This document shows positions 20,670 to 49,291 of a stretch of DNA of 64,000 bases, one piece after another. The DNA comes from a virus (Duplodnaviria; Caudoviricetes). Made by a program: the position numbers and the translations under genes. The stretch covers positions 18,332-82,331 of IMG/VR virus record IMGVR_UViG_3300031867_000031, one strand, 5' to 3'. Below the pieces are notes generated by a model. That model had not been told where the DNA came from, ran no database searches, and saw only the letters and a list, made by a program, of their open reading frames with translations. Positions within the stretch are counted from its first letter, which is position 1. Each line of letters opens with the position of its first letter.

Positions 20670-20756
20670 AAGAATAGTAAAATAGTAGGTTAAAAGGTAA
20701 AACCACTATCACCGGACAGAAATACGGGTTCGAGCCCCGTCTATTTTACTATTCTT
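20670..20756 (+). ncRNA. tRNA-like RNA with a 16-bp extended acceptor stem and a degenerate anticodon arm
   Basis: AAGAATAGTAAAATAG pairs perfectly with CTATTTTACTATTCTT; D arm GGTT-AAAAGGTAA-AACC; T arm ACGGG-TTCGAGC-CCCGT; promoter motif upstream and U-tract downstream. Confidence 0.6.
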
Positions 20757-20792
20757 TTTATTTTTTAGCTTCACAAGAATAGGAGGGTAGAA

Positions 20793-21518
20793 GTGGAACA
20801 CCTACCATCATTTATAGATGATCTTCATGTTGATATTAAGCCGTCATTTATTGCGCATTCATTTAGAGATGAACATGATGCTAAAATGATGTATGGGTTG
20901 CCTAAGGTAAAGAAATTTCCTATGCCTGACGCAAAGCATGTACGATCTGCTATTAGGTTTTTTAATTACGCTAAACCATCTCAAGAACAAGAGTTAGCTA
21001 ATGCTATTCTAGCTCGAATGGATGATTATGGTATCGACCCCGATGATATTAATGTCGGTGATGATAATCGTTTTAAGAAATATTTACAGCATTCATATTT
21101 AGCGCATCATGGCATTAAAGGAATGCATTGGGGTGTGAGAAGGTATGAAAATTATGACGGCACTCTAACCGCTGCCGGTAAAAAACGTTATGAAGGATTA
21201 GATCGCAAAAGTCAAAAAGCTAAAAAGAAATATTTAAAAATGATGGATAAAGATATGGAAAATCATTTTTACAATCAGTTAAGTCCGAATGCTAGAAAAG
21301 TTTCTGCAATTGGGCGCAATGGACGTGAGATACTTGGACAAGCTTGGGGAGAAGCGTATCGAAAAGGATACGTAACCGATAAAGATCATGCACAAATTAA
21401 GAAAGCAGCTAAAGAGACTCGTTCATATATGTCCAAAAAGTATGGCGATTCTGCAATGAAAGCTTTTACAAGATCTGGAGTACTTTTTAGAAAAATTGAT
21501 GATTTTGATACGTTATAG
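20793..21518 (+). CDS. Two-part protein: DUF6582-like domain followed by an internal HHG..WG leader
   Basis: KKFPMPDAKHVRSAIRFFNY domain, then YLAHHGIKGMHWGVRRYEN at 21105. Confidence 0.65.
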   Translation: MEHLPSFIDDLHVDIKPSFIAHSFRDEHDAKMMYGLPKVKKFPMPDAKHVRSAIRFFNYAKPSQEQELANAILARMDDYGIDPDDINVGDDNRFKKYLQHSYLAHHGIKGMHWGVRRYENYDGTLTAAGKKRYEGLDRKSQKAKKKYLKMMDKDMENHFYNQLSPNARKVSAIGRNGREILGQAWGEAYRKGYVTDKDHAQIKKAAKETRSYMSKKYGDSAMKAFTRSGVLFRKIDDFDTL

Positions 21519-21608
21519 AATCAACTATACTTTTATATTTTTCGCAGAAAAAACTCCTCCTTTATAGCAAGAGTCCAAAAGAGACTTAACTATTGAGAGG
21601 AGTTGTAT

Positions 21609-21923
21609 ATGAGCGGGACAGCTATTCCAGCATATAACCATGATGACCGTAATCATTGGTTTATTTGGCATGTGTTGGCTCACGAGCTCACGGAGGAGGA
21701 TTTCGAGGCAATTCAGTTGGCCCTCATCGAGCGCGAGGATGATCACAAAGCGATTGACAAGACGCAAGTGGTGTTCCACGAATTCGATAAGGGAACTATG
21801 ATGCAGCCAAGGCCTGTTCCTGAGTTTTATAAGCAAAAGGCGCATCGCTACGTAGACTGGTCTACGGCCATGGATATTTGCATGGTCCTTAGCAAGTACA
21901 CAGATTTCTATAGCAAGAAGTAA
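21609..21923 (+). CDS. Hypothetical protein in its own promoter-terminator cassette
   Basis: Promoter motif at 21541, GAGGAG RBS, terminator at about 21937-21970; higher GC than its neighbours. Confidence 0.55.
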   Translation: MSGTAIPAYNHDDRNHWFIWHVLAHELTEEDFEAIQLALIEREDDHKAIDKTQVVFHEFDKGTMMQPRPVPEFYKQKAHRYVDWSTAMDICMVLSKYTDFYSKK

Positions 21924-22139
21924 AGGACTTTTGAAAAAGGATTGTGAGGTCGAAAGACTTTACAATCCTTTTTTCTTTTTTTTACTATACTTTATTTTTT
22001 AGGAGGAATTAGACGTTAGTTATATTTCAAATCATGGTATTTTAGTGTATGAAACACTCTTACAAAACCCCAGGTAAACGGCTTGTTAAAAAGCGTTTTT
22101 AGAGCTTAAAAATTGACAAACGACTAATTACCCATAAAG

Positions 22140-22526
22140 TTGGCGATTTCAATTATGTCGTATGATAGAGATGGTGATATTTTTAAGCTTCATAATATAG
22201 GAGTCTCGGATATGAAACTTTCAGAGTTTTACAAATTGTCTAAACAACGAATTCGTCAAATTATTTTTGAGCAACGTCGTAGACATAGAAAAGGCAACCC
22301 TGATATTCCACAAATTGATACCATGTGCAGAATTCTTGGTTGGAGAGAAAATGAGAGAGGAAAACTTCAATCGATTTTGCACAAGAATGGATACACTTCG
22401 TATGATGATAAATGGCGAGATTTATCCTCGGATGATATTTTAGCCATACCTTTGTTGGGGCCGTCTGCTGTGTGCATTATTTGGCTTGCTCAAAACATGG
22501 ATGACGAAACGGATTCGACTAAATAG
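22140..22526 (+). CDS. Sigma70 region-4-like HTH fused to an RNAP alpha-CTD-like domain
   Basis: LSKQRIRQI (sigma 4.2-like) and ILHKNGY...LSSDDILAIPLLGPSAV (alpha-CTD-like HhH). Confidence 0.55.
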   Translation: MAISIMSYDRDGDIFKLHNIGVSDMKLSEFYKLSKQRIRQIIFEQRRRHRKGNPDIPQIDTMCRILGWRENERGKLQSILHKNGYTSYDDKWRDLSSDDILAIPLLGPSAVCIIWLAQNMDDETDSTK

Positions 22527-22537
22527 GATTTGGATAT

Positions 22538-22726
22538 TTGATGATACTTTTAGTTATTAGCATTTTGGTATCTATAACGATAGATGCTTCGCTTAAAGTA
22601 ATTAGTTTTATGAGTATGTATTCGAGATATATGAGTTCTGCATATTTGAAATTTATTAGAGCGCAAATTGCTATTAGCATAATCGAGCTATTTAGTATTG
22701 CGTTGTTGATAGTTCGGTTGGGTTAG
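22538..22726 (+). CDS. Small two-TM membrane protein
   Basis: Two hydrophobic stretches in 62 aa. Confidence 0.5.
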   Translation: MMILLVISILVSITIDASLKVISFMSMYSRYMSSAYLKFIRAQIAISIIELFSIALLIVRLG

Positions 22727-22740
22727 GAGGGTAAAAGATT

Positions 22741-23368
22741 ATGGAGTATCTTCCGACTTTTATTGATCAATTAGATGTAGATTATATTTCACATCATGGA
22801 ATTAAAGGAATGCATTGGGGGTATAAGAAGGTATCAGAATGCTGATGGTTCTTTGACACCTGCTGGAAGAAAACGGTATGACGAAACAACAAAGCTTATG
22901 CGACGTGCTGATTCTTATGAATCTGCTGCTAAACATTTAAATTCGCAAATACATCCTAACAAAAGTAGGATAGAACGCGCTAGAATAATGACTCAAGCTG
23001 TAAAAGCACAACAAAAAGCGGATCGTATACGCTCAAGATTAGACCCCGATATTGTTTCTAAAATTGAACAGGATAGAAAAATTGAATTGAAGAAAAAGCA
23101 AGCGGCAAAAGAAAAAGAATGGCATAATAGTCCATCTAGCAGAAGATATCGTTTTATGGATGACGCAATGCATGAAGTATTTGGAGCAAATACCAAAAGT
23201 GATTATAGGAATCTATATAGAGAAATGAGTAAGGACAAACGTTTTAAAAATTTATTAGATTCTGAAGATAATGATGATTACAAAGAAGCAGAAGCGGCTT
23301 GGCTTAAAAAGCATGGGTATTGGGAATCATATTTAGATGCTATACATAATGGTTATAAAGACATATAA
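22741..23368 (+). pseudogene. Frameshifted HHG..WG-leader gene (+1 G in a G5 run)
   Basis: From ATG 22741: MEYLPTFIDQLDVDYISHHGIKGMHWG, then stop at 22843-22845. The expected IRRYQNADGSLT continues in another frame; deleting one G of 22817-22821 joins them. Confidence 0.75.
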
Positions 23369-23502
23369 TCTCATATAGGATGATTGGTTAGTATATCTGG
23401 GGCTGGATGTCGTAAGATTTCCAGCTCCTTATATTTTTTTTGCCTACCTCGCTAAAAAAACTTTCCTAAAATAAGAGAAAGTTCTATAAAGGAGGTAAAG
23501 AA

Positions 23503-23727
23503 ATGAGTGAAATAAAATTTAGCGATAGAATGATATTTGCAACAAAGCATTTGATCAAGAGCATAGAGTTGTCGGTAGATAATTCTGTAGCATCTATAAA
23601 ATCGATTGGTATGTTATCAAGAGGTAATATGGAGCAATGGAGTTATTCTCGAAGCTCTATGAAGACTAGAAAAGCTGCTAAGAATGTACATATTAAAATC
23701 GCTAAAGCAGCGATGGTTGTAAAATAG
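23503..23727 (+). CDS. Hypothetical protein (cassette gene)
   Basis: Promoter motif at 23448, AGGAGG RBS, type-A hairpin after the stop. Confidence 0.6.
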   Translation: MSEIKFSDRMIFATKHLIKSIELSVDNSVASIKSIGMLSRGNMEQWSYSRSSMKTRKAAKNVHIKIAKAAMVVK

Positions 23728-23735
23728 AACTTTTT

Positions 23736-23777
23736 AGAGAAGTCGATGTATAGAAAGTTTATGCATGGACTTTCTCT
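23736..23777 (+). terminator. Type-A repeated hairpin/terminator, copy 1
   Basis: AGAGAAGTC..ATGTATA-GAAAGTT-TATGCAT..GACTTTCTCT plus U-tract; near-identical copies at 25005, 25715 and 26961. Confidence 0.7.
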
Positions 23778-23868
23778 TTTTTTGTTATATTTACCTTTTG
23801 TAAAAATTTTTGTCTCGTTAAATTTACCTTTTGTATTATAAGAAGGGCGCTAGAAGGAGCGATGAAAA

Positions 23869-24024
23869 ATGAAGTGCGAAATTTGTAAGAAGAACAATGG
23901 ACGGAAGTATAAAAGTGAAGTGTTTGATACGATTTGTCTTTGTGACAAATGTGTTAAACAACTTGGCGGAAAGAAAAAGGCCATTGAGGCTTATGAAATT
24001 GGGAATGTAGTTTTTGTTAAGTAG
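23869..24024 (+). CDS. Small Zn-finger protein (51 aa)
   Basis: Hand-translated MKCEICKKNNGRKYKSEVFDTICLCDKCVKQLGG...; promoter motif at 23814. Confidence 0.6.
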   Translation: MKCEICKKNNGRKYKSEVFDTICLCDKCVKQLGGKKKAIEAYEIGNVVFVK

Positions 24025-24115
24025 TATTTAACCAGCGCCCTTCTTTTTACCATTGATTATATTTTTTCGCATTTTTAACTTTTATTTATATAGGATTCTA
24101 TGAAAGGAGATAAAA

Positions 24116-24367
24116 GTGTATTTGACATCTTTTGAACAAATGTTATTGCAAGATCACATACAAGTTTATAAGAATCGACGCGAAGCATTGTTAATAGATC
24201 TTAATATTTATAAGATGGATGTTAGCTTTATGCGAGATGCAATAAAGCGTAATGATTATAAAAGATATAAGGTTTGGAAAAAATTCGTATACAGATCATA
24301 TAAACGAGTAAAAGTAACAGCACTACAAGTGTTGAAATACATGTTTGTTTATGCAAGATTGATTTAG
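24116..24367 (+). CDS. Hypothetical protein (cassette gene)
   Basis: Promoter motif at 24066, AAAGGAG RBS, GTG start. Confidence 0.55.
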   Translation: MYLTSFEQMLLQDHIQVYKNRREALLIDLNIYKMDVSFMRDAIKRNDYKRYKVWKKFVYRSYKRVKVTALQVLKYMFVYARLI

Positions 24368-24374
24368 AATTCTA

Positions 24375-24415
24375 TATAGACGCCGCTTTTACAGGGCGTT
24401 TATATTTTTGTCTCG
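24375..24415 (+). terminator. Type-B repeated hairpin/terminator, copy 1
   Basis: TATAGACGCC-GCTTTTACAG-GGCGTTTATATTTTTGTCTCG; copies at 25387 and 26653. Confidence 0.65.
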
Positions 24416-24438
24416 CTATAATAACCATTCATATAATG

Positions 24439-24576
24439 AGGAAGAGGAGTATAAACCCCGGCAGGCTTAGGTGTCTTACCACTGCGCGGAGCCCTAAGTC
24501 AGGTCGGACAAATAGTTCAATGGTAGAACGCCGATCTATAATGACGGAGACTCAGGTTCGAAGCCTGAAACTTCCT
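24439..24576 (+). ncRNA. tRNA-like RNA with an extra 5' hairpin domain
   Basis: D arm GTTC-AATGGTA-GAAC, imperfect anticodon arm, T arm TCAGG-TTCGAAG-CCTGA; AGGAAG (24439) pairs with CTTCCT (24571) across an inserted GGCTTAGG/CCTAAGTC hairpin. Confidence 0.55.
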
Positions 24577-24820
24577 TTTATATTTTTGTCTCGTTAAATT
24601 TACTTTCCCTAATATAGGAAGAGAGGTACATTTTATGCGAATGGAACGGCTGAAAAGCAAGGCGACACGGCAGTACCTGCGGTGACCCAGTAATAGGTAG
24701 CATATAGGTTAAAGGCCTATCATTTTTTTTTCGTTATATTTACTTTTTATAAAAATTTTTGCCTCGCTAAAAATACTATTCCTAATATAGGAAAGTTGGA
24801 CCTAGTAGAAAGGCACAAAA

Positions 24821-24997
24821 ATGATGTCAAAGAAGTTTACGGATGCCACGACATGCTTGCTGGTTACAACTATCGTAAGTGGTTACGTGGTGGCCAGGTT
24901 TGCACCACGTATCGGCTATACGATAGCCTGGACCAGCTACCTGTTGGCGGCTGGGACTTCCTTGGCAAGCGCAGTTTGCGCTTTCAAGGAACTCTAG
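24821..24997 (+). CDS. Small two-TM membrane protein (58 aa; a different frame from the ORF-track call)
   Basis: ATG after AGAAAGG; MMSKKFTDATTCLLVTTIVSGYVVARFAPRIGYTIAWTSYLLAAGTSLASAVCAFKEL. Confidence 0.6.
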   Translation: MMSKKFTDATTCLLVTTIVSGYVVARFAPRIGYTIAWTSYLLAAGTSLASAVCAFKEL

Positions 24998-25004
24998 TTC
25001 TAAA

Positions 25005-25044
25005 AGAGAAGTTCATGTAGAAAGTTTATACATGGGCTTTCTCT
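25005..25044 (+). terminator. Type-A repeated hairpin/terminator, copy 2
   Basis: Same stem and GAAAGTTT loop as 23736, plus U-tract. Confidence 0.7.
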
Positions 25045-25129
25045 TTTTCGTTATATTTACTTTTTGTATTTTTTTTTCGCACATTTAACTAGTCCTTATA
25101 TAGGTAGAACCTATAGAAAGGAATTTACG

Positions 25130-25384
25130 ATGAGTAAGATTTATAAGATCAAGTACCTCACTTGGTATGAAGATTGGGATCGTTATATTCAACATGAGTA
25201 TACATATCTGAACGAAATATCGGATCTGGAGGCAGCGATAGCAATAGCAAAATCGGTTGTCGATCAGTACATATTATGCTCAGATGACTATGCTACATTT
25301 GAACTGAACAATCACCATTTTGGCGCATACCAAGAGGACAGGATTATGGGTCAAGCTGACGGAATTCGAGTATGGGTTGAATGA
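25130..25384 (+). CDS. Hypothetical protein, paralogue of 26396-26650
   Basis: MSKIYKIKYLTWYEDWDRYIQHEY...; near-identical to the second copy. Confidence 0.7.
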   Translation: MSKIYKIKYLTWYEDWDRYIQHEYTYLNEISDLEAAIAIAKSVVDQYILCSDDYATFELNNHHFGAYQEDRIMGQADGIRVWVE

Positions 25385-25386
25385 GC

Positions 25387-25427
25387 TATAGACGCCGCTT
25401 TTATAGGGCGTTTATATTTTTGCCTCG
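25387..25427 (+). terminator. Type-B repeated hairpin/terminator, copy 2
   Basis: TATAGACGCCGCTTTTATAGGGCGTTTATATTTTTGCCTCG. Confidence 0.65.
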
Positions 25428-25476
25428 TTGAAAATACCATTACTTATATAGGAAGAAATCCGTAGAAAGGATAGAC

Positions 25477-25707
25477 ATGAAACATTGGTATTGGGCATGC
25501 GAACTTTCTAATGGCGAATTTACTGCAAACACATTTGCGGATGCATCGTCACTTTACGAGGTTTGGAATAAGATTGAGCAAATCTTTACCAGGCGAGTAG
25601 CAAGGGGACGTATAGATCCGACTAGTTTAACAGTAGATGAAACTGGAATAAAGTTCGTAGAGACTCGTCATCACGACCAAATCGAGTGGCGAATTTGTAT
25701 GGATTAA
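25477..25707 (+). CDS. Hypothetical protein (cassette gene)
   Basis: Promoter motif at 25424, GAAAGGA RBS. Confidence 0.6.
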   Translation: MKHWYWACELSNGEFTANTFADASSLYEVWNKIEQIFTRRVARGRIDPTSLTVDETGIKFVETRHHDQIEWRICMD

Positions 25708-25714
25708 ACCAAAG

Positions 25715-25756
25715 AGAGAAGTCAATGTATAGAAAGTTTATACATGGGCTTTCTCT
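25715..25756 (+). terminator. Type-A repeated hairpin/terminator, copy 3
   Basis: Same stem and loop plus U-tract. Confidence 0.7.
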
Positions 25757-25835
25757 TTTTGTTATATTTACTTTTTGTATTTTTTTTTCGCAATTTTAAC
25801 TCATACTATATAGGATGAGTTAAGATTGGAGATTT

Positions 25836-26126
25836 ATGAAATACGAAATAAAAATCGCATGGTATTTATCAAAAAATTTACCAGTAATCGAACAAACTAT
25901 TGGGTTTTGTGATAATAAAAAGAAAGCTTATAGATTAATTGTTGGTATAGCAAAAATGATTGCTAAGTATCAAACAATTGACTATAACTGTATAGAATTA
26001 AAAAATTGTAAACGAGGCGCTATATTTGGAAAAATTGCGATTATTGAACACTTAGATAAAATGCAACGAAAGTATGGTCCATTTTATACCCATCCACTAG
26101 TGTTAGGGAAACCTAAAAACTTATAG
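25836..26126 (+). CDS. Hypothetical protein (cassette gene)
   Basis: Promoter motif at 25787, GGAG RBS, hairpin AGCAAGTT/AACTTGCT after the stop. Confidence 0.55.
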   Translation: MKYEIKIAWYLSKNLPVIEQTIGFCDNKKKAYRLIVGIAKMIAKYQTIDYNCIELKNCKRGAIFGKIAIIEHLDKMQRKYGPFYTHPLVLGKPKNL

Positions 26127-26177
26127 CAAGTTGATATTTAACTTGCTTTTAGTTTTTTTTACGTTAGGAGATGTATT

Positions 26178-26354
26178 ATGGTAGATGAACAGAAAAAACT
26201 TAAAAAGGTTCTCGATGATATTCAAGAAAAACTTACTCATTATCCTTCTATAGTGGATGAAGATCCAAACCAAGATGAATATTATTTAGTGGTTTTACCA
26301 TTAACAAAATCTGAAATGAAAGCGTTAGAAAAACTTATATCTTCGCACATTTAA
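26178..26354 (+). CDS. Small hypothetical protein (58 aa)
   Basis: AGGAG RBS; MVDEQKKLKKVLDDIQEKL...; its 3' end overlaps the next promoter motif. Confidence 0.5.
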   Translation: MVDEQKKLKKVLDDIQEKLTHYPSIVDEDPNQDEYYLVVLPLTKSEMKALEKLISSHI

Positions 26355-26395
26355 CCAGTCCTTATATAGGTAGAACCTATAGAAAGGAATTTACG

Positions 26396-26650
26396 ATGAG
26401 TAAGATTTATAAAATCAAGTACCTCATTTGGAATGAAGATTGGGATCGTTATATTCAACACGAGTATACATATCTGAACGAAATATCGGATCTGGAGGTA
26501 GCGATAGCAATAGCAAAATCGCTTGTCGACCAGTACATATCGTGCTCGGATAACTATATCACATTTGAGCTTAACGATCGCCATTTTGGTGCATACCAAG
26601 AGGACAGGTTTATGGCTCAAGCAGACGGAATTCGAGTATGGGTTGCGTAA
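26396..26650 (+). CDS. Hypothetical protein, paralogue of 25130-25384
   Basis: MSKIYKIKYLIWNEDWDRYIQHEY... Confidence 0.7.
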   Translation: MSKIYKIKYLIWNEDWDRYIQHEYTYLNEISDLEVAIAIAKSLVDQYISCSDNYITFELNDRHFGAYQEDRFMAQADGIRVWVA

Positions 26651-26652
26651 GA

Positions 26653-26693
26653 TATAGGCGCCGCTTTTACAGGGCGTTTATATTTTTGCCTCG
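26653..26693 (+). terminator. Type-B repeated hairpin/terminator, copy 3
   Basis: TATAGGCGCCGCTTTTACAGGGCGTTTATATTTTTGCCTCG. Confidence 0.65.
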
Positions 26694-26747
26694 TTGAATT
26701 TACCTTTACTTATATAGGAAAGTAATAAACTATTCAGGAGGTAAAAA

Positions 26748-26954
26748 ATGAGTTTTTATTGCGTTTATGGCTATGCAGACAACGACTGCGGATGGACTGA
26801 AGATTTCAACAATCTCGAAGAGGCTAAAAATCGTCTTTCGGAGATTATGACAGAAGATGAGGTTGCTGATATTACAGAGACAGAAGGCGGCGAGAATAGT
26901 ATAGTGCATTACAAGACAAATGACGGATACAACTACGGAATCAGTTTGTTCTAA
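26748..26954 (+). CDS. Small acidic hypothetical protein (cassette gene)
   Basis: Promoter motif at 26690, AGGAGG RBS. Confidence 0.6.
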   Translation: MSFYCVYGYADNDCGWTEDFNNLEEAKNRLSEIMTEDEVADITETEGGENSIVHYKTNDGYNYGISLF

Positions 26955-26960
26955 CTAAAA

Positions 26961-27002
26961 AGAGAGGTCGACGTATAGAAAGTTTATACGTGGACTTTCT
27001 CT
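26961..27002 (+). terminator. Type-A repeated hairpin/terminator, copy 4
   Basis: AGAGAGGTC.ACGTATA-GAAAGTT-TATACGT.GACTTTCTCT; compensatory changes relative to the other copies. Confidence 0.7.
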
Positions 27003-27062
27003 TTTTTATATTTACTTTTTGTAAAAATTTTTGCTTCGCTAAAATTACTATTCATATTTTAG

Positions 27063-27236
27063 AAAGGGAGAGAAACTAAGAGATCGTAGAGCCATTGCTG
27101 GTGAAAACCCAGCCATCTATGCGAACGGCCACCTGTAGTCAGCATAGACTCGCCCCTTTTATATTTGTAGCGGACCTAGGTGGTATGAGGGAGACTAGGC
27201 AAAGAGGAATCGACAAAGGTCGAGCGGTAAATCCGT
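27063..27236 (+). ncRNA. Two adjacent structured non-coding elements
   Basis: Stems AAAGGGAGAG/CTCGCCCCTTT, GCTGG/CCAGC and CTATGC/GCATAG; then GCGGA/TCCGT, CCTAG/CTAGG and TCGAC/GTCGA; downstream of promoter 27035. Confidence 0.45.
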
Positions 27237-27393
27237 GGGAAAAACAGGTATTTATTTTTTTTCTCGCAAAAATTACGTTTCATATAATGAGATGGAGTAG
27301 AGTAAGAATGTAGCAGGTAAACAGTGCTTGTTATATTTTTATTGCTGCTCAAAATTTTTATGGCCAAAAGTGCCAAGAGAGGAGTTTTGTAGT

Positions 27394-27738
27394 ATGAAGC
27401 TGTCAAAAGAGATTTTGGATAAACTTCGTGATGCTTGGGGTGATCAAGGCGAGCTTTATCCGTGGACGACCGGTGCAGAGGTTCTTACGGGTATCCCGGT
27501 CATGGAAGATGAGGAACAAGATAAGGTCTCTGCGACTGATAAGAAATCGACCAAGCCGCTCTATAAGACTTACGAAGACCTTGCTTATATTTCAGCAATG
27601 GAATCAACTCGCTGCCACATGTTGATCAATAAGCTTAAGGCCACTATTGATCTTCTTGATGCTCAACAGCAGTACTATGAAGCTATAAGTGCCATCGAGC
27701 GCGATAATGAGTCGTTTGGATTTGATCTAGACATTTAA
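27394..27738 (+). CDS. Hypothetical protein
   Basis: GAGGAG RBS, ATG at 27394, terminator hairpin after the stop. Confidence 0.6.
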   Translation: MKLSKEILDKLRDAWGDQGELYPWTTGAEVLTGIPVMEDEEQDKVSATDKKSTKPLYKTYEDLAYISAMESTRCHMLINKLKATIDLLDAQQQYYEAISAIERDNESFGFDLDI

Positions 27739-27808
27739 ATGCAATAAGAATATGAGAGGTGCTAATGGAATAAGCATCTCTCATATTTTTTACTGAAAGG
27801 TTTGTGTA

Positions 27809-28081: not shown

Positions 28082-28107
28082 ATAATCAAGATTAGAAAGG
28101 ATCAATA

Positions 28108-29589: not shown

Positions 29590-29648
29590 TATTCTCGCAA
29601 TTTTTACGTTTTGTATAATAGGTTAGGTAGGCATAGATTGAAAAGGAG

Positions 29649-29885
29649 ATGATTGCTATGCCGAGTGGAGTTAAGATTGCGAAGTTTGTCGGTGGACTAA
29701 TTGAGGTATGCTTTCTAGTGTCGTTTGTATACGAGTGCGGCAAGGAAGCTGGGCGAAAGGAGCAGCAAGAAGAGACTGCTCAGCAAGCTCAGGATCCTTC
29801 GCTGATCGATGCAAAGGACTTTGTGGAGCTGCTAAAAAATGTTGACAAGGAAGTAATCAGCAAAGCTCGGTTTACAGTTAAGTAA
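29649..29885 (+). CDS. Small membrane-anchored protein (cassette gene)
   Basis: Promoter motif at 29594, AAGGAG RBS, terminator at 29914-29940. Confidence 0.6.
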   Translation: MIAMPSGVKIAKFVGGLIEVCFLVSFVYECGKEAGRKEQQEETAQQAQDPSLIDAKDFVELLKNVDKEVISKARFTVK

Positions 29886-29971
29886 GCCAAGTAAAGCCTT
29901 AAAACCTATATAGAAGGATCTGTAGAAATACAGGTCCTTCTTTTTTATTTTTTAAAAGGAGAATTTTTAAC

Positions 29972-33386: not shown

Positions 33387-33450
33387 CTCTCGCAGAATTA
33401 ACTCGCACTATAATAGGTAGGTATTACAAATACGTTTGAAAGGCGATGCA

Positions 33451-33624
33451 ATGGACGTTAGTGTTATGTGCGAGTATCTGATTGATTCCATAATGATACT
33501 TGTTGGCATGGGTGTGCTGGTGCACATCTATGCGGAGCAAAGGTATCAGGAAGGAATGGAGAAGGGAATGCGCATGCAGCGGAAGATTGATCGCGCTGCT
33601 AGACGCGGAGAGTTTTATCGGTAG
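33451..33624 (+). CDS. Small membrane-anchored protein (cassette gene)
   Basis: Promoter motif at 33389; one TM; terminator at 33628-33660. Confidence 0.55.
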   Translation: MDVSVMCEYLIDSIMILVGMGVLVHIYAEQRYQEGMEKGMRMQRKIDRAARRGEFYR

Positions 33625-33702
33625 AGAAGAGGGGATCTATAGAAAATTATGGATCCCCTCTTTTATGTTTTTGCATGCTTTTCTTTAGAAAGGATTTCAG
33701 GC

Positions 33703-41061: not shown

Positions 41062-41101
41062 TCTTTATAGGAATAAAAAATGATTTATATTTGGAGAAAT
41101 T

Positions 41102-41299: not shown

Positions 41300-41321
41300 A
41301 ATGATACATTTGGAGATTTAA

Positions 41322-42013: not shown

Positions 42014-42059
42014 ACATTCTAACGAGATTATTAGAATGTATTGAAAGAATGGTTCTTAT

Positions 42060-42359: not shown

Positions 42360-42409
42360 TTGACTATATTTTACCTGTTCAGCAAGAAGTTAAATCAGGA
42401 GAGTCTATT

Positions 42410-42961
42410 ATGAGTCCGATTCACAATGGTAAAGGCATGATTGTAATTGGTTATCAAGGAATTGGTAAAAGTACTCTAGCATCAAAGCGAGATGGTATTA
42501 TTGATCTCGAATCTAGTAATTTTAAAATCGATGGCGAACGTGATGAAAATTGGTACATTATATATTGTCGCATAGCAGTATCGCTTGCTTGTCAAGGCTA
42601 TATTGTTCTAATCTCGTCACATGAGTGTGTTAGATCGGAACTTCGAAAGTACAATCCTAATAATCCTAAAGACAAGTATACAGTTGTGATTATTTGCCCG
42701 CATTATGTTCTCGAGGATCAATGGATACAGCGTCTACATAATCGTTATATTCAAGATCGATCCGATAAGAACTATGCTGCATGGAAAGACGCTGAAGCGC
42801 ATTTTGTCGATTCGATCCAGTCAATGACGCAAGGTGTAGTATTCTCTATTATACTTTTGGATTCTATGGACTACGATCTTGGCGGACTTATTATGTCTCT
42901 TTATCGAGCTAGTCAACCTAAAACACATTTTTCACAACGAATTCGAGAAGAAGGATGTTAG
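42410..42961 (+). CDS. P-loop NTPase/kinase
   Basis: IGYQGIGKST, IDLESS. Confidence 0.7.
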   Translation: MSPIHNGKGMIVIGYQGIGKSTLASKRDGIIDLESSNFKIDGERDENWYIIYCRIAVSLACQGYIVLISSHECVRSELRKYNPNNPKDKYTVVIICPHYVLEDQWIQRLHNRYIQDRSDKNYAAWKDAEAHFVDSIQSMTQGVVFSIILLDSMDYDLGGLIMSLYRASQPKTHFSQRIREEGC

Positions 42962-42968
42962 ATATTTT

Positions 42969-43130
42969 ATGGATAGACCAACTTTTGAAAAATTCTATCA
43001 TATATTGATAGCTATTCAAGTTATTGTTGGTTTGGTAAATGATGAAAGTTTTAGATTTTGGATATTTCATTTTCTAATTTTCACAATATTAGCCGCCTTA
43101 CTACTTATAGTATCTAACCGTACAGAATAA
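42969..43130 (+). CDS. Small two-TM membrane protein
   Basis: Hydrophobic 53-aa ORF. Confidence 0.5.
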   Translation: MDRPTFEKFYHILIAIQVIVGLVNDESFRFWIFHFLIFTILAALLLIVSNRTE

Positions 43131-43156
43131 TAGCTCTTGAAAGGAGAATTATATTT

Positions 43157-43363
43157 ATGGCAATGGAAGATATTGCATCACGTTTTAAATTCGTTAAGAT
43201 GAATGACGAACAAAAGCGGGCATCCGAAAAGATTCGAGAAGAGGTTCTTAATCTAGCAGACATTACTGATATTTATTGTCCAGATAGTCGAGAGAAATCT
43301 CTAGCATTAACTAAACTTCAAGAGTTTATGTTCTGGGCAAATACATGTATTTCGCATAACTAA
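43157..43363 (+). CDS. Acb2/Tad1-like helical-hairpin protein (putative immune-signal sponge)
   Basis: CPDSREKSLALTKLQEFMFWANTCI resembles the (A/K)TKL.E..MWA motif of T4 Vs.4/Acb2-type proteins; 68 aa. Confidence 0.6.
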   Translation: MAMEDIASRFKFVKMNDEQKRASEKIREEVLNLADITDIYCPDSREKSLALTKLQEFMFWANTCISHN

Positions 43364-43408
43364 TAATTATATTTTCATAGTCAATACTCAAAAGAAAGTG
43401 AAAAGATC

Positions 43409-43945
43409 ATGACACAGGAAGTTAAGGTTGCTATTATTGCTACAACTGGTATGGTTGCTATAGTAGGTGCACTTATTTATTCCAACCATGCTGAAAAGAA
43501 ACGTCAACTTAAAACAAAGCAGGAAAATCGAAAGCTTGAAGCTGAGACAAAGCTCAAGCAAGCAGAGATTGAAGGGACATATCCTCCAGAGTATTGGATT
43601 GCCAAGAAGGCTGAGGCAGAAGCTGATGCGCAAGTTCGTCAAGCGCGCATCGAATCGGAAGAGCGTCTTAAGATAGATCAGCGCAATAGAGAAGATGCTG
43701 ATCGAAAGGCTCAGAGAGAATTCGAGAAGGATGCTCCTGAGTCATATTGGCAGCATAAGCGCTTCAAGGAAGAAGAGGAGACCAAGCGTAAGCAACTTGA
43801 GATTGATGATCAGCGCAGGCGTCGTCTCGAGGAGCAGGAACGTGATATTGCTGCTAAGCAGGCTAAGTCTCTTGAAGAGGGAACCAAAGCTCTAGAGAAA
43901 GCACTTCGAACTGCTAACTACGCATCCACTATGTTTGGGTATTGA
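43409..43945 (+). CDS. Membrane-anchored coiled-coil protein with an internal repeat
   Basis: N-terminal TM; two P.E.YW motifs. Confidence 0.6.
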   Translation: MTQEVKVAIIATTGMVAIVGALIYSNHAEKKRQLKTKQENRKLEAETKLKQAEIEGTYPPEYWIAKKAEAEADAQVRQARIESEERLKIDQRNREDADRKAQREFEKDAPESYWQHKRFKEEEETKRKQLEIDDQRRRRLEEQERDIAAKQAKSLEEGTKALEKALRTANYASTMFGY

Positions 43946-43952
43946 TATTTTA

Positions 43953-44045
43953 GCCGGGAGCAGCGGTGTAGCCGATGTAGGAGCTATACTCGGGAATGAG
44001 ATCTGCACGAGATAGTACATGGCGTAATTAGGTGGGGACTATCTC
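43953..44045 (+). ncRNA. Structured intergenic element (GGYGGGG-loop family)
   Basis: GTGTAGC/GCTATAC hairpin and GAGATAGT...GGTGGGG-ACTATCTC. Confidence 0.4.
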
Positions 44046-44084
44046 AATTATATTTTTAAATCTTTATAGAAAGCATTCCATAAA

Positions 44085-44372
44085 ATGATTGGTAATGGAG
44101 TAGACATGTATGATCTTGTCGTCAACATACACGATAAGATGGATATTCGTTTGACACCAATGCCTGAAAAAATTTGGATAGGAGTAATCGAAAAGATGAA
44201 TCCTTCTCCACCAGTTCCCAGAAAGAAAACCAAATGTTATAGCCGACGTCAAGTATATTTGTATAATGGTCGACGCGTGTTCAGTATGGTTCGAGATTAC
44301 GAAAAGAACGAATTCGATTTCTATTATATTCCAGATGACGAATTGTGCTTCATAGAGAAAGTAATGCTATGA
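44085..44372 (+). CDS. Hypothetical protein
   Basis: 95-aa ORF. Confidence 0.5.
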   Translation: MIGNGVDMYDLVVNIHDKMDIRLTPMPEKIWIGVIEKMNPSPPVPRKKTKCYSRRQVYLYNGRRVFSMVRDYEKNEFDFYYIPDDELCFIEKVML

Positions 44373-44932
44373 CATTTTTACATCAACTATTCGAATTAAG
44401 AAAGCGTGGACCAGAACGTCACGATTGTACTGCTCCATACGACGTTATATTTAGACTACCGAATAGACACCCAACTGTTAACCAATTTCTAAATAGCATT
44501 ATAGCTCATAAGGATGAATGGGGGAAAGTACATATTTCACCTGGCTCAGCATACACTACTGTATGGGATCTTATGGGTTATCATGGAAAGATTGACAGTC
44601 TTGAATACCGTTGGGGTGAATGGGTCAAAAATTATGATATTTTTGTAGAGAAGTATGGTAATCGAAAGATCAAATCTGCTACAGCTGATGGCGGATGGTC
44701 ATTGATGGATTACACACTTCTTTTAGAGGATGACGATATGAAGTATGAAGAATTCGGCGATATTGATATTCCAGCGGATTTCGAATTTTCCATAAAAGAT
44801 GGTCGATCATGTATCGAACGAATGCATGAAGAAAAGTTGTTAACCACGTCTGAGTATAATTCTGTAATGACTATTATCGACGGTGCAGAAGCACGAAAGT
44901 ACGAATCTATAAAGGCGTTAAATAATGGATGA
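44369..44932 (+). CDS. Hypothetical protein
   Basis: Coupled ORF; TVNQFLNSI...EWG...SLEYRWG...ADGGWSLMDY. Confidence 0.55.
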   Translation: MTFLHQLFELRKRGPERHDCTAPYDVIFRLPNRHPTVNQFLNSIIAHKDEWGKVHISPGSAYTTVWDLMGYHGKIDSLEYRWGEWVKNYDIFVEKYGNRKIKSATADGGWSLMDYTLLLEDDDMKYEEFGDIDIPADFEFSIKDGRSCIERMHEEKLLTTSEYNSVMTIIDGAEARKYESIKALNNG

Positions 44933-45215
44933 CAACGAACTTACTTTTAATTTTTTAAAAGGCCCGTTCCCGGAAAAGATAGTTTTACACAGACTAATTA
45001 CAACTGTCGATGAACAAAAGACAGAAGAATTATATTTTAAACGAGTCTATTGCTATGCGATTGTACACATGTATGATGAAGATAATGTTGTAGGAAGTTG
45101 CATATGTTCTAATTGCAATAACTCATTGGGCCTTTTTGAAAAGTTTTGTCCGCATTGCGGAGCAAAAATTCAAGGAAAGAAAATTTTAGATAAGGATGGT
45201 AATGAAATTGATTGA
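44925..45215 (+). CDS. Zn-ribbon protein
   Basis: CSNC...FCPHCGAK. Confidence 0.7.
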   Translation: MDDNELTFNFLKGPFPEKIVLHRLITTVDEQKTEELYFKRVYCYAIVHMYDEDNVVGSCICSNCNNSLGLFEKFCPHCGAKIQGKKILDKDGNEID

Positions 45216-45303
45216 CTATTAACATTGATATTTTCGCAAAATTTACTCTTTATTAGTTGACCGGACCAGCAATGGTCAGAAAAACTCTTGAAAGGAGATA
45301 GGA

Positions 45304-45546
45304 ATGGATACGGTCAAGAATGCACTGGGCAGGATTAAGAACTTTATATTTGGCATGAAGACTGAGCAGAAGATGAAGTTCGCAGCTTCGTTGCTTATGC
45401 TGTTCGGCAGCAGCGCATTGGCGTTGTCTGCTGCTCAGGATAGTGATGATGACATGATTGATATTTCTGATCAGGCCGAGGTACTGGATAGTTCTGAGGT
45501 TGTCGAGACGATCGAGTCCGATACTATTGAGAGTGATACCGAGTAA
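45304..45546 (+). CDS. Small protein with TM/signal and acidic tail (cassette gene)
   Basis: Promoter motif at 45233, AAAGGAG RBS, terminator at about 45578-45600. Confidence 0.6.
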   Translation: MDTVKNALGRIKNFIFGMKTEQKMKFAASLLMLFGSSALALSAAQDSDDDMIDISDQAEVLDSSEVVETIESDTIESDTE

Positions 45547-45647
45547 ACTGATATTTGTTAATGTCGGTCAGAAAGTAAGGAGTCTGAATAAGGCTCCTTA
45601 CTTTTTTACTTTTTTATTACTATTTATATTTTTGTTAGGAGAAAACA

Positions 45648-46199
45648 TTGCCTAAGTTATTTGTTAGCCTACCAATGAATGGCCGAGAAATTGATGATAT
45701 TCGTTCTGACATGCATGCAATCTGCCAGATTGTATCTGCAGAGATGGGCGAACAGTTCGAACTGATAGATACCGTTTGGACTGATGAGCCGCCCATTGAT
45801 ATTCTGAATGATCCCGGATCTTGTGGAGCATGGTATTTAGGTAAGTCTATTAGCGCTCTCGCTGAAGCCGATCTTGCTGTATTTGATAGTGATTGGCGTT
45901 TTGCTAGAGGATGCATTGTTGAGCATATGATGTGTTCGTTGTATAATATTCCGTATGTCGATATGAGTATGTCATATTCCGACGATGATGAGGAAGTTAA
46001 CGATTATACAGTAGATCGTAATGAAGCTGCTAGAATCAATAACATTCTCAGCGAGGAGTATGAAGAGGATGCGCTCGGCTTCGAGCATGATGATATTTAC
46101 GACTTAGAGGGTGAGGCTGAGGAGATTGAGGACGTCGAGGATGATGAAGACGATCCTGATGCTCTCGAGCCTGGTGAGTATGATGCGGATACAGAATGA
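45648..46199 (+). CDS. Nucleoside-deoxyribosyltransferase-like (DUF4406-like) protein with acidic tail
   Basis: KLFVSLPMNG...YLGKSISALAEADLAVF...W..ARGC.VEH. Confidence 0.6.
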   Translation: MPKLFVSLPMNGREIDDIRSDMHAICQIVSAEMGEQFELIDTVWTDEPPIDILNDPGSCGAWYLGKSISALAEADLAVFDSDWRFARGCIVEHMMCSLYNIPYVDMSMSYSDDDEEVNDYTVDRNEAARINNILSEEYEEDALGFEHDDIYDLEGEAEEIEDVEDDEDDPDALEPGEYDADTE

Positions 46200-47353
46200 T
46201 ATTCGGTGAAAAAATTTTCAGGGCTTTAGGCGAGCTTCGAGCTGCTGAAGTTGATGATGACACTGATATTTCTCATCATGGAATTAAAGGTCAGCAATGG
46301 GGCGTACGGAATGGCCCTCCATACCCATTGAACAGTCATCAGCGAATTTCTAAAAAGTCTTACGAAAAACTTAATGATATTTATAAGTCGATGCCGTTAT
46401 CAGATAGACGTTTAATCGACCCCGATACTAATGACGGTGACGGATATTTTTCGAGCTATCATGAATACAAAAAGCAAGTAGCCTATAATGGATTAGCTGA
46501 TGATGGATTCATTATTGCTGAAAAAATTTCCAGCGAAGACAACGTCGATGGAACTCGTGGAGTTGAAATCGGGATAGGAGTCATATCTAAAGGCAAAGGA
46601 ACTGGTACTCGGTTGGTCGACGACATGAAAACTTGGTTTAATAATCAAGATGAGTATGATTCTATGTGGTGGCCTGTCGATAAGGATAACAAAGCCTCTA
46701 TAGCACTTGCCAGAAAAGCTGGTTTTATAAAAGACCCTTATGGGAGTAATTATATTTACGGCAAAAAAGAGGCAATGAAAAAACTTGGCATACCACCTGA
46801 GAATACTGAAATGTTGCCTAATTATTCCGGCCATGCATATTTCATTTCGAGTAATGATTCATTAACTGAGTTAGATCCCAGAGTGCCTGATAATTTCTTT
46901 ACAAGAAACGGCTATGAGGATTCTAATACTCCAAGAATTTCATTTGCTCCAAGCATCGATAAATGTTTAGCAGGACTGTCGCAAAATGTGGATGGCCAAA
47001 CTTTTTCTGTATACGAGCCAAATGATATTTCGAAGCATACTGTATACAAGCCAAATGCAAAAGCAGTTCCAGATTCCGGTATAACAGATGAGTTATGGAT
47101 TTGTGAAAACGTTCCTTTAAAGAAAAGTGGAACTATAACAGTAACTGGTAATCGAGGAGAGGCCGGTCGTATATTTTCATATGGAGATCAACAAGCTGAA
47201 TTATTTGACGATTGGACTTATGAATCTAATCCGGTAAAGCATGATGCGTCTACGTTGTTTGGTGAACGAGTTACTTCTAATGATATTTATTACATGGAAA
47301 TTCGAGAGAAACTTAATCCAGGCGTACGCGTTATTCGATATTATCCAAACTAA
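46196..47353 (+). CDS. HHG..WG-leader protein with a GNAT acetyltransferase domain and an ART-like C-terminal domain
   Basis: ISHHGIKGQQWGVRNGPPYP; SKGKGTGTRLV (acetyl-CoA motif) and DNKASIALARKAGF; then RISFAPSIDKC...VPD..TDELWI. Confidence 0.65.
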   Translation: MIFGEKIFRALGELRAAEVDDDTDISHHGIKGQQWGVRNGPPYPLNSHQRISKKSYEKLNDIYKSMPLSDRRLIDPDTNDGDGYFSSYHEYKKQVAYNGLADDGFIIAEKISSEDNVDGTRGVEIGIGVISKGKGTGTRLVDDMKTWFNNQDEYDSMWWPVDKDNKASIALARKAGFIKDPYGSNYIYGKKEAMKKLGIPPENTEMLPNYSGHAYFISSNDSLTELDPRVPDNFFTRNGYEDSNTPRISFAPSIDKCLAGLSQNVDGQTFSVYEPNDISKHTVYKPNAKAVPDSGITDELWICENVPLKKSGTITVTGNRGEAGRIFSYGDQQAELFDDWTYESNPVKHDASTLFGERVTSNDIYYMEIREKLNPGVRVIRYYPN

Positions 47354-47466
47354 TCTCGCAACTTTTCCAGCTCCTTAAATGGGAGTATTAAATCTCAACA
47401 GAAAGGGATCACATGGAAAAGTAATACTTATATTTTTGTACGACAAAAATTAGGAAAGGAAACTAA

Positions 47467-48363
47467 ATGAAAGCAGGAGCTATCCTAAAGATTCAAAAGG
47501 TATTAGTGAAAAACGCACCAACAATACTTGCGGTGATGGGAGGTATTGGTACTATTGCCGCAGTGTGTATGAGTTCGGACGCCGCGCTTAAAGCTAAGCA
47601 GGCTATTGAAGATGCTGAGCGAGAAGCAAAAGGCGATGACTATGAATTATATTCTGAGTGCAAGGAACTTGCAAAGAAAGGCTATCAGGAGACGGCTATT
47701 GTTAAGAAGCTTGATATTTCAGAAGATAAGCTTGATGTAGTTAAGTCGCCTCTTAGTAAGGCAGACAAGGTATGGATCTATGCGAAAGCATATGGTCCTA
47801 CGGCTATCATGACAACTGCCAGTCTCGTGTGCATTTTCGGATCAAATCATATCAATAAGAAACGTATTGCTTCTCTTGCTGGTGCATATCTTATGAGCGA
47901 GACTGCACTGAAAGAGTATAAGGAGAAGGCTAAGGAAGTTGTTGGAGTTAAGAAGGCTCAGGAGATTTCTGATGAGATCATTCAGGAAAAGGTAAACAAT
48001 AATCCGCCTAATCCCGAAGCTGTGGCAAATGCCGATACGCCAGCTATGCGAAATGTCGTAGACCTAAGTCTATGGTATGATGTGGTTAGCGATAGATATT
48101 TCTACAGCAATGCCGATCAAATTCGTAGAGCAGAGCTAGAAGCTCAAAAGATGCTCAACAAGAATGGTTTCGTATCGATCAATGATATTTACGCAATACT
48201 TGGATTGCGTGATATTCCAATCGGAAACGATATTGGTTGGCAGAAAGATCGCAATAAGGATGTGGTGCTTGTGATCGGTGGAGCACTCGATGATAATGGA
48301 CAGCCTATTGGTACTATGGATATGGATGTTCATCCGTCAAGTGCGTGGCTTAGTGAAGTGTGA
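47467..48363 (+). CDS. DUF6353-like protein
   Basis: KNAPTILAVMG.IG...YGPTAI...KRIASLAGAY...DRYFYS...GFVSINDIY.ILG...IGW; family name from memory. Confidence 0.6.
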   Translation: MKAGAILKIQKVLVKNAPTILAVMGGIGTIAAVCMSSDAALKAKQAIEDAEREAKGDDYELYSECKELAKKGYQETAIVKKLDISEDKLDVVKSPLSKADKVWIYAKAYGPTAIMTTASLVCIFGSNHINKKRIASLAGAYLMSETALKEYKEKAKEVVGVKKAQEISDEIIQEKVNNNPPNPEAVANADTPAMRNVVDLSLWYDVVSDRYFYSNADQIRRAELEAQKMLNKNGFVSINDIYAILGLRDIPIGNDIGWQKDRNKDVVLVIGGALDDNGQPIGTMDMDVHPSSAWLSEV

Positions 48364-48540
48364 AGAGGACTAAACTACTGGAATGAATAATATTCTAATT
48401 AGAATAATTATATTCTAGTAAATCTTATGGATAGCATGGGTGAGTTAAAAACTTGCCCATGTTTTCTTTTTTCATTGATATTCTTCGCAGTTTTTACTTT
48501 CCCTTAAATAGGTAGCGTAATCCTATTAAGGAGGAAAGCA

Positions 48541-48804
48541 ATGGAAGATCAAAAAGTGTTGACAAAAGATGAATTTAAGGAAATCGTTGGAGCCACTTTA
48601 GGCATATCGGCAATGCTGTTTATCACGGCATATCTGGAGAGCAGCACCATAGCTAACGGGATATTTTGGAAGATAATCCGTAGGTTTGGTATTGCTGGGC
48701 TCGGATTGGTCACGATGCAGATGGTTGACAAGTGTGCACAGAAGGCTGTTGACGAACATGTAACTTATTATTCTAGCACATTTAAAGATATTTTCACAAA
48801 GTAA
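48541..48804 (+). CDS. Small membrane protein (cassette gene)
   Basis: Promoter motif at 48484, AAGGAGG RBS, terminator at about 48829-48850. Confidence 0.6.
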   Translation: MEDQKVLTKDEFKEIVGATLGISAMLFITAYLESSTIANGIFWKIIRRFGIAGLGLVTMQMVDKCAQKAVDEHVTYYSSTFKDIFTK

Positions 48805-48937
48805 TAATTGCGTTATCAAGCTTTAATAAGGCGGTTGAAATACACCGCCTTTTCTTTTTCATTGATATTCTTCGCAAAAATTACTATCTCTATAATAGGC
48901 AGAGAACATAAGGTTCTCTTTACGAAAGGAGATTGTA

Positions 48938-49291
48938 ATGGCAAGGAAGCTGATTATCGAGCAAGACACGCCGTCAGCGTCGGATACAGTTATCGAAATT
49001 GTGTCCTCGCTCGGAGGCATTGCATTGGGCATCAGCTCCGGTTGGTATTTGAACCAGATCCTTCCGGCTGCTGCGACTACCATGGAAGAGGTAGTTCGTA
49101 GGAGTGCGGTTGGGCTTGGTTCGTTCACTATCGGAGTGACGGGCTCTAAGGCAATCCAATCCGAGATGGAGGATGCAAGAGAGGCCGCTATAATGGCGAA
49201 ACTGATGGCGAGCGGATTGCTGACCAAGGAAGAGGTCAAGACAGTTGAAGAAGAGAAGCCTACGGTTGTAAAGACTTCTGCCAAGAAGTAA
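48938..49291 (+). CDS. Two-TM membrane protein (cassette gene)
   Basis: Promoter motif at 48871, AAAGGAG RBS, terminator at about 49301-49322. Confidence 0.6.
   Translation: MARKLIIEQDTPSASDTVIEIVSSLGGIALGISSGWYLNQILPAAATTMEEVVRRSAVGLGSFTIGVTGSKAIQSEMEDAREAAIMAKLMASGLLTKEEVKTVEEEKPTVVKTSAKK

Follow-up and report, generated by a model that had tools for sequence, protein, structure and literature searches.

Why should the first bases of a small phage transcription unit be complementary to the sequence at its own stop codon, with a different sequence in every unit? The question is raised by a 64,000-nucleotide stretch of DNA (the window), bases 18332-82331 of the 82,331-bp IMG/VR virus record IMGVR_UViG_3300031867_000031 (Duplodnaviria; Caudoviricetes; estimated to be 99% complete), in which an earlier note had pointed out such end-to-end stems and suggested that they form protective panhandles. 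The ten pairs of 5' and 3' arms quoted there are all present where described, with a single slip of one base (AACCTAT lies at 29903, not 29902), and they pair over 6-11 bp with 0-3 G.U pairs and 0-1 mismatch. Below we describe this pairing as the base of a predicted fold-back that in most units runs through the whole transcript, and we put at about 60% the probability that these transcripts are self-protecting, closed early messages.

The units in question are monocistronic cassettes: many copies of a 25-nt promoter motif, TCGY-N5-NWAC-N6-TATAAT, precede a single small open reading frame (ORF) with a strong Shine-Dalgarno (SD) site and then a hairpin-plus-U terminator, and the terminator-promoter modules recur at 81-96% identity. 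We name units by the position of the promoter TCG (for example, unit 23815) and refer to the phage of the window as W. Pattern and protein scans recovered relatives on three viral contigs (G1, G2, and L011) and on metagenome contigs L016-L019; megablast of the region against phage records gave no match, and two further scans of viral contigs yielded no additional relatives. Each leader was set against the 3' segment of its own unit and against those of every other unit in its genome, a control that retains both composition and shared terminator sequences. Cognate duplexes were consistently the stronger—in the window, -13.4 versus -9.9 kcal/mol (14 units; p=2e-5, about 1 in 50,000 permutations); in G1, -12.8 versus -8.0 kcal/mol (9 units, p<2e-5); in G2, -14.4 versus -10.5 kcal/mol (7 units, p=0.018); and in L019 and L011 together, -11.8 versus -8.0 kcal/mol (9 units, p=1.2e-4). 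The effect in the relatives includes cassettes that the window lacks (GGATACTACC/GGTAGAATCC, AGATAGTCC/GGATGATCT, and AGTGTTACT/AGTAACATT).

The signal is located in the first 10 nt past the TATAAT hexamer and fades beyond +12. Arms are 6-14 bp long and differ in sequence in every unit; the 5' arms end 0-8 nt before the SD, and the 3' arms touch or overlap the stop codon, with 0-12 nt between them and the terminator hairpin downstream. When whole transcripts were folded with a partition function (31 units), the first 12 nt paired with the region from the stop codon to the 3' end with a probability of 0.65 and almost never with the far larger ORF body; swapping 14-nt leaders between units lowered pairing with the 3' end to 0.31 (Wilcoxon p=2e-7). 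Local 5' hairpins, considered as replacements for end pairing in units 48872, 25077, and 45234, reached appreciable local pairing in the ensemble only in unit 45234. Among 35 operon-internal genes of the window, cognate end pairing was not enriched (p=0.62), and the genome-wide design proposed in the earlier note is thereby narrowed to monocistronic promoter-to-terminator cassettes. One might argue that leaders rich in A+T and in purines, and tails rich in U, yield chance matches that the eye picks out; the shared leader sequence AGGAAAG does pair generically with CUUUCU of the terminator tails, and swapped leaders still reach 0.31. This explanation is refuted by the permutation tests in four sets, the operon-internal control, the swapped-leader folding, and the covariation described below.

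The cassettes of the window are listed here; z-scores are relative to dinucleotide shuffles, "interior" denotes the ORF without arms and terminator, and a rod is a fold that joins a message's 5' half to its 3' half by pairing.

21567..21982, + strand, cassette transcript; ORF 21609-21923; 5' arm 21568-21576, 3' arm 21925-21933 (duplex -13.6 kcal/mol); terminator from 21933, U-tract 21976-21982; predicted single unbranched rod, interior z -2.95
23474..23783, + strand, cassette transcript; ORF 23503-23727; 5' arm 23476-23487 (AGAAAGTTCTAT), 3' arm 23724-23735, overlapping the stop codon; terminator hairpin from 23737; minimum free energy (MFE) structure a rod, z -7.2
23840..24048, + strand, cassette transcript without a separate terminator hairpin; ORF 23869-24024; arms 23840-23851 (AAGAAGGGCGCT) with 24034-24045 (AGCGCCCTTCTT), U-tract directly next; full-transcript z -5.7
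24092..24409, + strand, cassette transcript; ORF 24116-24367; 5' arm 24092-24100, 3' arm 24365-24373, including the stop codon
24789..25048, + strand, membrane-peptide cassette (unit 24764); ORF 24821-24997; 5' arm 24796-24808, 3' arm 24992-25003; nested helices through the ORF, interior z -5.67, terminal helix alone weak
25102..25421, + strand, cassette transcript, paralogue of the one at 26368-26687; ORF 25130-25384; arms 25108-25115 and 25371-25378; predicted single rod, interior z -4.73
25450..25760, + strand, cassette transcript; ORF 25477-25707; arms 25451-25468 and 25694-25710 (core AATCCGTA/TATGGATT)
26368..26687, + strand, cassette transcript; ORF 26396-26650; arms 26374-26381 and 26637-26644; predicted single rod
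26716..27007, + strand, cassette transcript, a weak case; ORF 26748-26954; arms 26717-26735 and 26938-26956 (core AATAAACT/AGTTTGTT); interior z -0.11, end-pairing probability 0.24 versus 0.17 with swapped leaders
29620..29946, + strand, cassette transcript; ORF 29658-29885; arms 29620-29640 and 29888-29907 (AGGTT/AACCT plus GGC/GCC)
33415..33664, + strand, cassette transcript (promoter 33390, absent from the earlier note); ORF 33451-33624; no significant terminal helix and no cognate signal; the strongest internal rod, single, interior z -8.17
45259..45615, + strand, cassette transcript; ORF 45304-45546; extended imperfect duplex of 45260-45279 with 45548-45568 (-20.6 kcal/mol, rank 1); competing local 5' hairpin, local pairing 0.36
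48510..48853, + strand, cassette transcript; ORF 48541-48804; arms 48511-48528 and 48802-48817 (GGTAGCGTAAT/ATTGCGTTATC, 3 G.U pairs); end-pairing probability 0.84 versus 0.06 with swapped leaders
48897..49330, + strand, cassette transcript; ORF 48938-49291; arms 48898-48904 and 49276-49282, the 3' arm lying inside the end of the ORF; rod, interior z -5.90

Ortholog differences by codon position (134:108:223) indicate that the cassette ORFs are coding. Searches of PHROGs and Pfam assigned no function to their products and detected no RNase or RNA ligase nearby; only ORF 24821-24997 encodes a hydrophobic small membrane peptide, the other cassette proteins being orphans. The leader of unit 23815 (23840-23868) is a tandem imperfect repeat, AGAAGGGCGCT / AGAAGGAGCGAT, and it is possible that the 3' arm pairs alternatively with the copy that carries the SD, as a switch. 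Promoter 26343 sits within the 3' end of the preceding ORF (window 26178-26354), and since the cassette that follows is a paralogue of cassette 25077, the arrangement looks like a recombination scar of cassette duplication.

The panhandle proposed by the earlier note captured a real pairing, though only part of the structure: the closing stem forms the outer end of a predicted fold that takes in the whole transcript. In the 14 cassettes of the window, the ORF interiors gave a mean z of -3.26, compared with -0.56 for pieces of 26 operon-internal ORFs (Mann-Whitney p=1e-4). Most MFE structures consisted of one nested fold-back pairing the two halves of the message with each other, and 11 of the 31 cassette transcripts were predicted to be single unbranched rods with one hairpin loop. 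Mean nesting depth across these 31 transcripts was 0.52 of the maximum, as opposed to 0.31 for shuffles and 0.30 for control ORFs. RNase III processing stems were considered as well; the helices, however, are interrupted every 6-13 bp.

The earlier note had taken G-U pairs as a sign that pairing occurs in RNA. Counting G.U against A.C did not settle this: the ratio is 31:10 in cognate pairs and 343:167 in non-cognate pairs, so that a 2:1 bias arises from composition alone. A sense/antisense comparison with shuffles took its place. Sense transcripts exceeded their shuffles by 16.4 kcal/mol (mean z -4.33), whereas reverse complements did so by only 9.7 kcal/mol (z -2.57; sense versus antisense p=6e-6). 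The RNA level of the pairing thus stands on this strand test and on compensatory change, the G.U argument being indecisive by itself. Because the sense fold is stronger, one-sided changes between orthologs yield G.U and never A.C, and the arms are unit-specific, the modelled folds speak more for selection on the sense RNA than for a symmetric palindrome in DNA.

That the repeats act on DNA instead—each cassette being an imperfect palindrome that recombination, cassette mobility, or replication uses or produces—we consider very unlikely. Cassette content does vary between the related phages, one leader is joined to a foreign ORF, and the recurring terminator-promoter modules are similar to the shuffling modules of PeSL (PMC2839356). 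Against this stand the sense-strand excess beyond composition and the G.U rather than A.C outcome of one-sided changes; arms that differ in every unit could not be recognised by a site-specific enzyme, and stems of about 10 bp with loops of 200-400 nt are not expected to extrude from duplex DNA. Terminal inverted repeats of a mobile module were likewise rejected, as pairing spans the ORF (-14.2 kcal/mol) and not the terminator-promoter module between neighbouring cassettes (-8.1 kcal/mol).

Comparison among the phages, whose cassette sets differ (W, G1, G2, L019, and L011), gave the compensatory changes in orthologous cassettes expected of RNA-level pairing under selection. GAGAAAGGAGUAA/UUACUCCUUUCUC in G1 becomes GAGAAAGGAGCAA/UUGCUCCUUUCUU in G2, replacing a U-A by a C-G pair. 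In the 74-amino-acid cassette (23474..23783; 50% identity between W and G1), the 12-bp helix is retained although the 3' arm has shifted relative to the stop codon, with one A-U to U-A swap and three one-sided G.U-compatible changes; its rod is retained as well, with eight pairs changed on both sides. Unit 23815 keeps its arms unchanged in G2, whereas most positions of the adjacent 9-nt spacer differ there. Further one-sided changes include G-C to G.U in the G2 ortholog of 24092..24409, and C-G to U.G and G.U to A-U in the G1 ortholog of 25450..25760. The covariation extends into coding sequence: across four phages (70-91% protein identity), 95.9% of cells of the membrane-peptide cassette were paired, compared with 38-45% when partners were slid, with 6 double-change pairs, and a 6-bp helix inside the ORF of a 69-amino-acid cassette carries three double changes (CGGACC/GGUCCG versus CAGAUU/AAUCUG). 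We regard these counts as supportive, not conclusive, because few sequences were available and the scored structures came from the same alignments. Between two cassettes of L011 (reverse strand, ~1068-1140) lies a run of >45 T, which may be an assembly artefact or an extreme U-tract.

If the fold is real in RNA, it might govern translation—through silence until processing, as in hok, through re-initiation from stop codon to ribosome-binding site (RBS), or by limiting ribosome load. The position of the arms lends this some appeal, as a ribosome terminating at the 3' arm would melt a helix whose other strand lies 0-8 nt before the SD, and messages of the hok type likewise pair both ends. On the contrary, the SD region was predicted to be the most accessible part of the transcript (unpaired probability 0.51; ORF body, 0.36; first 10 nt, 0.29), and exchanging native for swapped leaders made it slightly less open (from 0.52 to 0.47). 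It was as open in nascent RNA (0.58) as in full-length RNA, and the idea that translation is permitted only once the transcript is complete was rejected in silico on this ground. The 5' end behaves differently: as long as nascent RNA lacks the 3' arm it is 55-60% unpaired, a share that falls to 29% in the full-length transcript. Because the RBS is open throughout and the 5' end closes late, the fold looks like closure on completion and not like a translational lock; the folding predictions do not support a lock of the hok or icaR type, nor the translation gating raised by the earlier note. With, in addition, no antisense promoter motif on the minus strand of the region and only one cassette protein resembling a small membrane peptide, we judge control of translation to be quite improbable.

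The main rival to closed, protected messages is instead that the closing helix serves termination, either as the terminator stem itself or by insulating the terminator hairpin from the ORF, such that the polymerase of host or phage stops and any stability is a side effect. Two cassette families have no other terminator stem: unit 23815 of W with its G2 ortholog 2894, and G1 7543 with G2 2574. Unit 23815 had been singled out in the earlier note for a closing stem directly followed by a U-tract, which is indeed its sole terminator stem. The closing helices of these families are the strongest of all (-20 to -22 kcal/mol), with no local hairpin before the adjoining U-tract, and form a G+C-rich stem followed by U residues, as in an intrinsic terminator (AAGAAGGGCGCU/AGCGCCCUUCUU then UUU; GAGAAAGGAGUAA/UUACUCCUUUCUC then U6); the short loop of such terminators is lacking, the "loop" being the whole message of ~180-235 nt. 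Two small RNAs end in the same way, the 3' arms generally lie within 12 nt of the terminator hairpin, and the 5' end is free until the 3' arm emerges. Since the closing helix is the sole terminator stem in two families, closure and termination can be the same event. Most units, on the other hand, already have a strong conventional terminator hairpin (-10 to -25 kcal/mol), no upstream helix is known to be required for intrinsic termination, and paired ORF interiors are left unexplained by this account. We therefore consider termination as the primary role unlikely, if less so than translational control.

End-to-end closure is also predicted among small structured RNAs interspersed with the cassettes. 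The earlier note had extended the rule to four non-coding RNAs; it holds for the three listed here.

20667..20762, + strand, tRNA-like small RNA (ARAGORN "tRNA-???", canonical T-arm); a 19-bp stem joins the first and last bases, is followed by a U-tract, and doubles as terminator; conserved in G1
24438..24582, + strand, conserved small RNA of 145 nt with a tRNA-like core (partial Rfam tRNA match, 34 bits) and a long extra hairpin; a 7-bp helix joins its two ends, with a U-tract
27061..27163, + strand, small RNA closed in its predicted fold by AAAGGG..GAG / CUC..CCCUUU, then a U-tract

The fourth, at 27295, does not follow it: positions 27289-27345, in the leader of the operon starting at ORF 27394, form a local 19-bp hairpin followed by a U-run, which looks like a leader terminator or attenuator. 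For the RNA at 24438..24582, an exact 40-mer also occurs in 3 other contigs, and in five variants differing by leader indels the closing helix reaches the first base past TATAAT, with one pair covarying as A-U / G.U / G-C. This RNA matches no Rfam family of its own, searches of the region yielding tRNAs only. A further structured RNA, 27150-27262, has its own promoter in G1 and G2 (TTATAT|AGGAATC...GTAGCGGACCTAGG); in the window it follows directly after the RNA at 27061-27163 with no promoter between them.

These helices bear on where transcription begins. The motif scan of the window, which returned no copies on the minus strand of the region, located the following 21 copies, all on the + strand and usually followed by AGG.

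25-nt promoter motif, + strand (example 23449..23473), TCG at 20642, 21542, 23449, 23815, 24067, 24413, 24591, 24764, 25077, 25425, 25788, 26343, 26691, 27036, 27264, 29595, 33390, 36773, 45234, 48485, and 48872

Promoters 29595, 45234, 48485, and 48872 have an extra upstream block, ATTGATATT, in common, and one further copy, outside the window, points outward from near the left end of the genome (genome position 1207, minus strand). The outer helices start at -1 to +3 relative to the first base past TATAAT, bearing out the earlier statement that pairing begins directly after the motif. Because they reach that base, and because the closing helix of the small RNA at 24438-24582 reaches it in five variants, we infer that the transcript begins right next to the hexamer, at the A/G of AGG. 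Such spacing would be unlike that of a sigma-70 promoter and would fit a compact phage-polymerase promoter; the YonO literature gave no promoter consensus for comparison.

A candidate enzyme for these promoters is encoded at window positions 60025-62787. This 920-amino-acid protein matches phrog_4291 over its full length (E=0), a family that carries the label "RNA-dependent RNA polymerase"; we read it as a YonO-like, two-barrel, single-chain RNA polymerase. It has an HTH_23 domain near its N-terminus and a helix-turn-helix resembling sigma-70 region 4 at its C-terminus. The genome is otherwise siphovirus-like, with terminase, portal, protease-capsid fusion, and major tail protein genes on its left side and a primase-polymerase ~50% identical to that of Faecalibacterium phage FP_oengus, the closest isolate.

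Taken together, the folds suggest the following course of events. A monocistronic cassette would be transcribed from the 25-nt phage-specific promoter, starting at the A/G right past TATAAT, probably by the phage's own polymerase and without coupling to ribosomes. The 5' end would stay free until the 3' arm is synthesised and then close, as the first ~10 nt pair with the unit-specific sequence at or just past the stop codon, directly upstream of the terminator hairpin or, in two families, in place of the terminator stem. In most units, pairing of the 5' half of the ORF with the 3' half would extend this helix into a rod with the SD in an open internal loop. The outcome would be a message folded compactly, its two termini buried and little of it single-stranded except the RBS, a form that may shield early messages from host RNases that depend on the 5' end or on single strands, and possibly from other factors that need naked RNA, with ribosomes still able to load and unzip the rod.

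Several points weigh against this reading. Start site, 3' ends, and folds alike come from prediction, and a sigma-70-type start 6-7 nt past the hexamer would strip several outer helices of their 5' strand. A heavily paired ORF could equally limit translation. Not every unit has a clear rod or terminal helix: units 26691 and 25425 fold weakly throughout, the terminal helix is weak in unit 24764, and unit 33390 has none. The helix of 29620..29946, retained in G2, is lost in the ortholog L018 prom4547, and L019 prom1370 has an unmatched leader. In the latter (L019:1370-1708), an unrelated 66-amino-acid ORF with an unmatched 3' end follows the membrane-peptide cassette's leader (AGGAAAGTTGGACTAG); this is apparently a recent recombinant without a re-evolved closing helix. 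Finally, with only five related arrays, covariation counts are small.

A broader proposal, which we offer as a speculation that is more likely wrong than right, is that phages which inject their own ribosome-uncoupled polymerase, or bring it into play rapidly, write early genes as self-closing rods, as a general strategy for hiding early transcripts from host RNases, Rho, and RNA-guided immunity. If so, the 5' terminus and 3' terminator would form one nicked helix, the ORF would be mostly double-stranded with the RBS exposed, and the coding sequences of new orphan genes would evolve under a palindrome constraint. More immediately, the cassettes suggest that the sequences of phage orphan genes can evolve mainly under the demands of RNA structure, and for an uncharacterised family of single-chain two-barrel RNA polymerases they supply a promoter candidate whose +1 is defined. 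The unit-specific arms, with covariation reaching into coding sequence, also amount to a natural set of compensatory variants relating closure to decay, termination, and translation in Firmicute-type hosts. Were the fold protective, engineered messages might be stabilised by giving them the same architecture.

The literature searched contained no description of rod-shaped or end-paired messages in DNA phages, and the nearest parallels come from single features of other systems. In hok/sok, too, the extreme 5' end pairs with the 3' end (the fbi/tac fold-back), giving a compact and stable message, and partition folding places the 5' end of full-length cassette messages at their 3' end in the same manner. 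Folding of hok blocks translation until 3'-end processing and acts together with an antisense RNA; in the cassettes, by contrast, the translation start is predicted to be open (RBS unpaired 0.51 in silico), no minus-strand promoter motif for a cis antisense unit was seen in the region, and the proteins are diverse orphans with one hydrophobic peptide among them. A base-paired 5' terminus blocks 5'-end-dependent decay in the leader stem-loops of ompA, ermC, and aprE, and these hairpins are local, whereas the cassettes take the partner strand from the message's 3' end. The two untranslated regions (UTRs) of one message also pair at long range in Staphylococcus aureus icaR, in which the pairing covers the SD, represses translation, and recruits RNase III (PMC3868564); the cassettes spare the SD. 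As with PeSL of T4-type phages (PMC2839356, PMC4122927), repeated terminator-plus-promoter modules, here with 21 promoters, flank small orphan ORFs whose content is shuffled between relatives. The PeSL stem-loop, however, lies within the module, no unit-specific pairing across the ORF or rod message has been described for it, and the T4-type early promoter and T4-like background are replaced here by the TCGY-N5-NWAC-N6-TATAAT motif and a siphovirus-like genome with a two-barrel polymerase.

The closest documented case is the hbs mRNA of Bacillus subtilis, in which a 14-bp interaction of the 5' UTR with the 3' UTR just upstream of the terminator, proven by compensatory mutants, modulates cleavage by RNase Y (Braun, Durand & Condon 2017, PMC5737220); in this bacterium, mRNA pairing at a distance of hundreds of nucleotides works in vivo (PMC12697547). 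The cassettes have the same kind of 5'/3'-UTR complementarity just upstream of the terminator, and natural compensatory changes indicate that it is selected. As in hbs, in which RNase access and stability are affected, the RBS is left free, and the setting is that of Firmicutes. The differences are that the 5' strand of hbs lies within a long structured leader and that of the cassettes at the very 5' end, that no whole-ORF rod has been described for hbs, and that hbs is a single cellular gene, whereas the cassettes comprise ~20 families, each with a different sequence and some with the closing helix in place of the terminator stem. Two-end pairing of bacterial messages, documented for a handful of single genes, is here a repeated rule in ~20 unrelated small phage genes.

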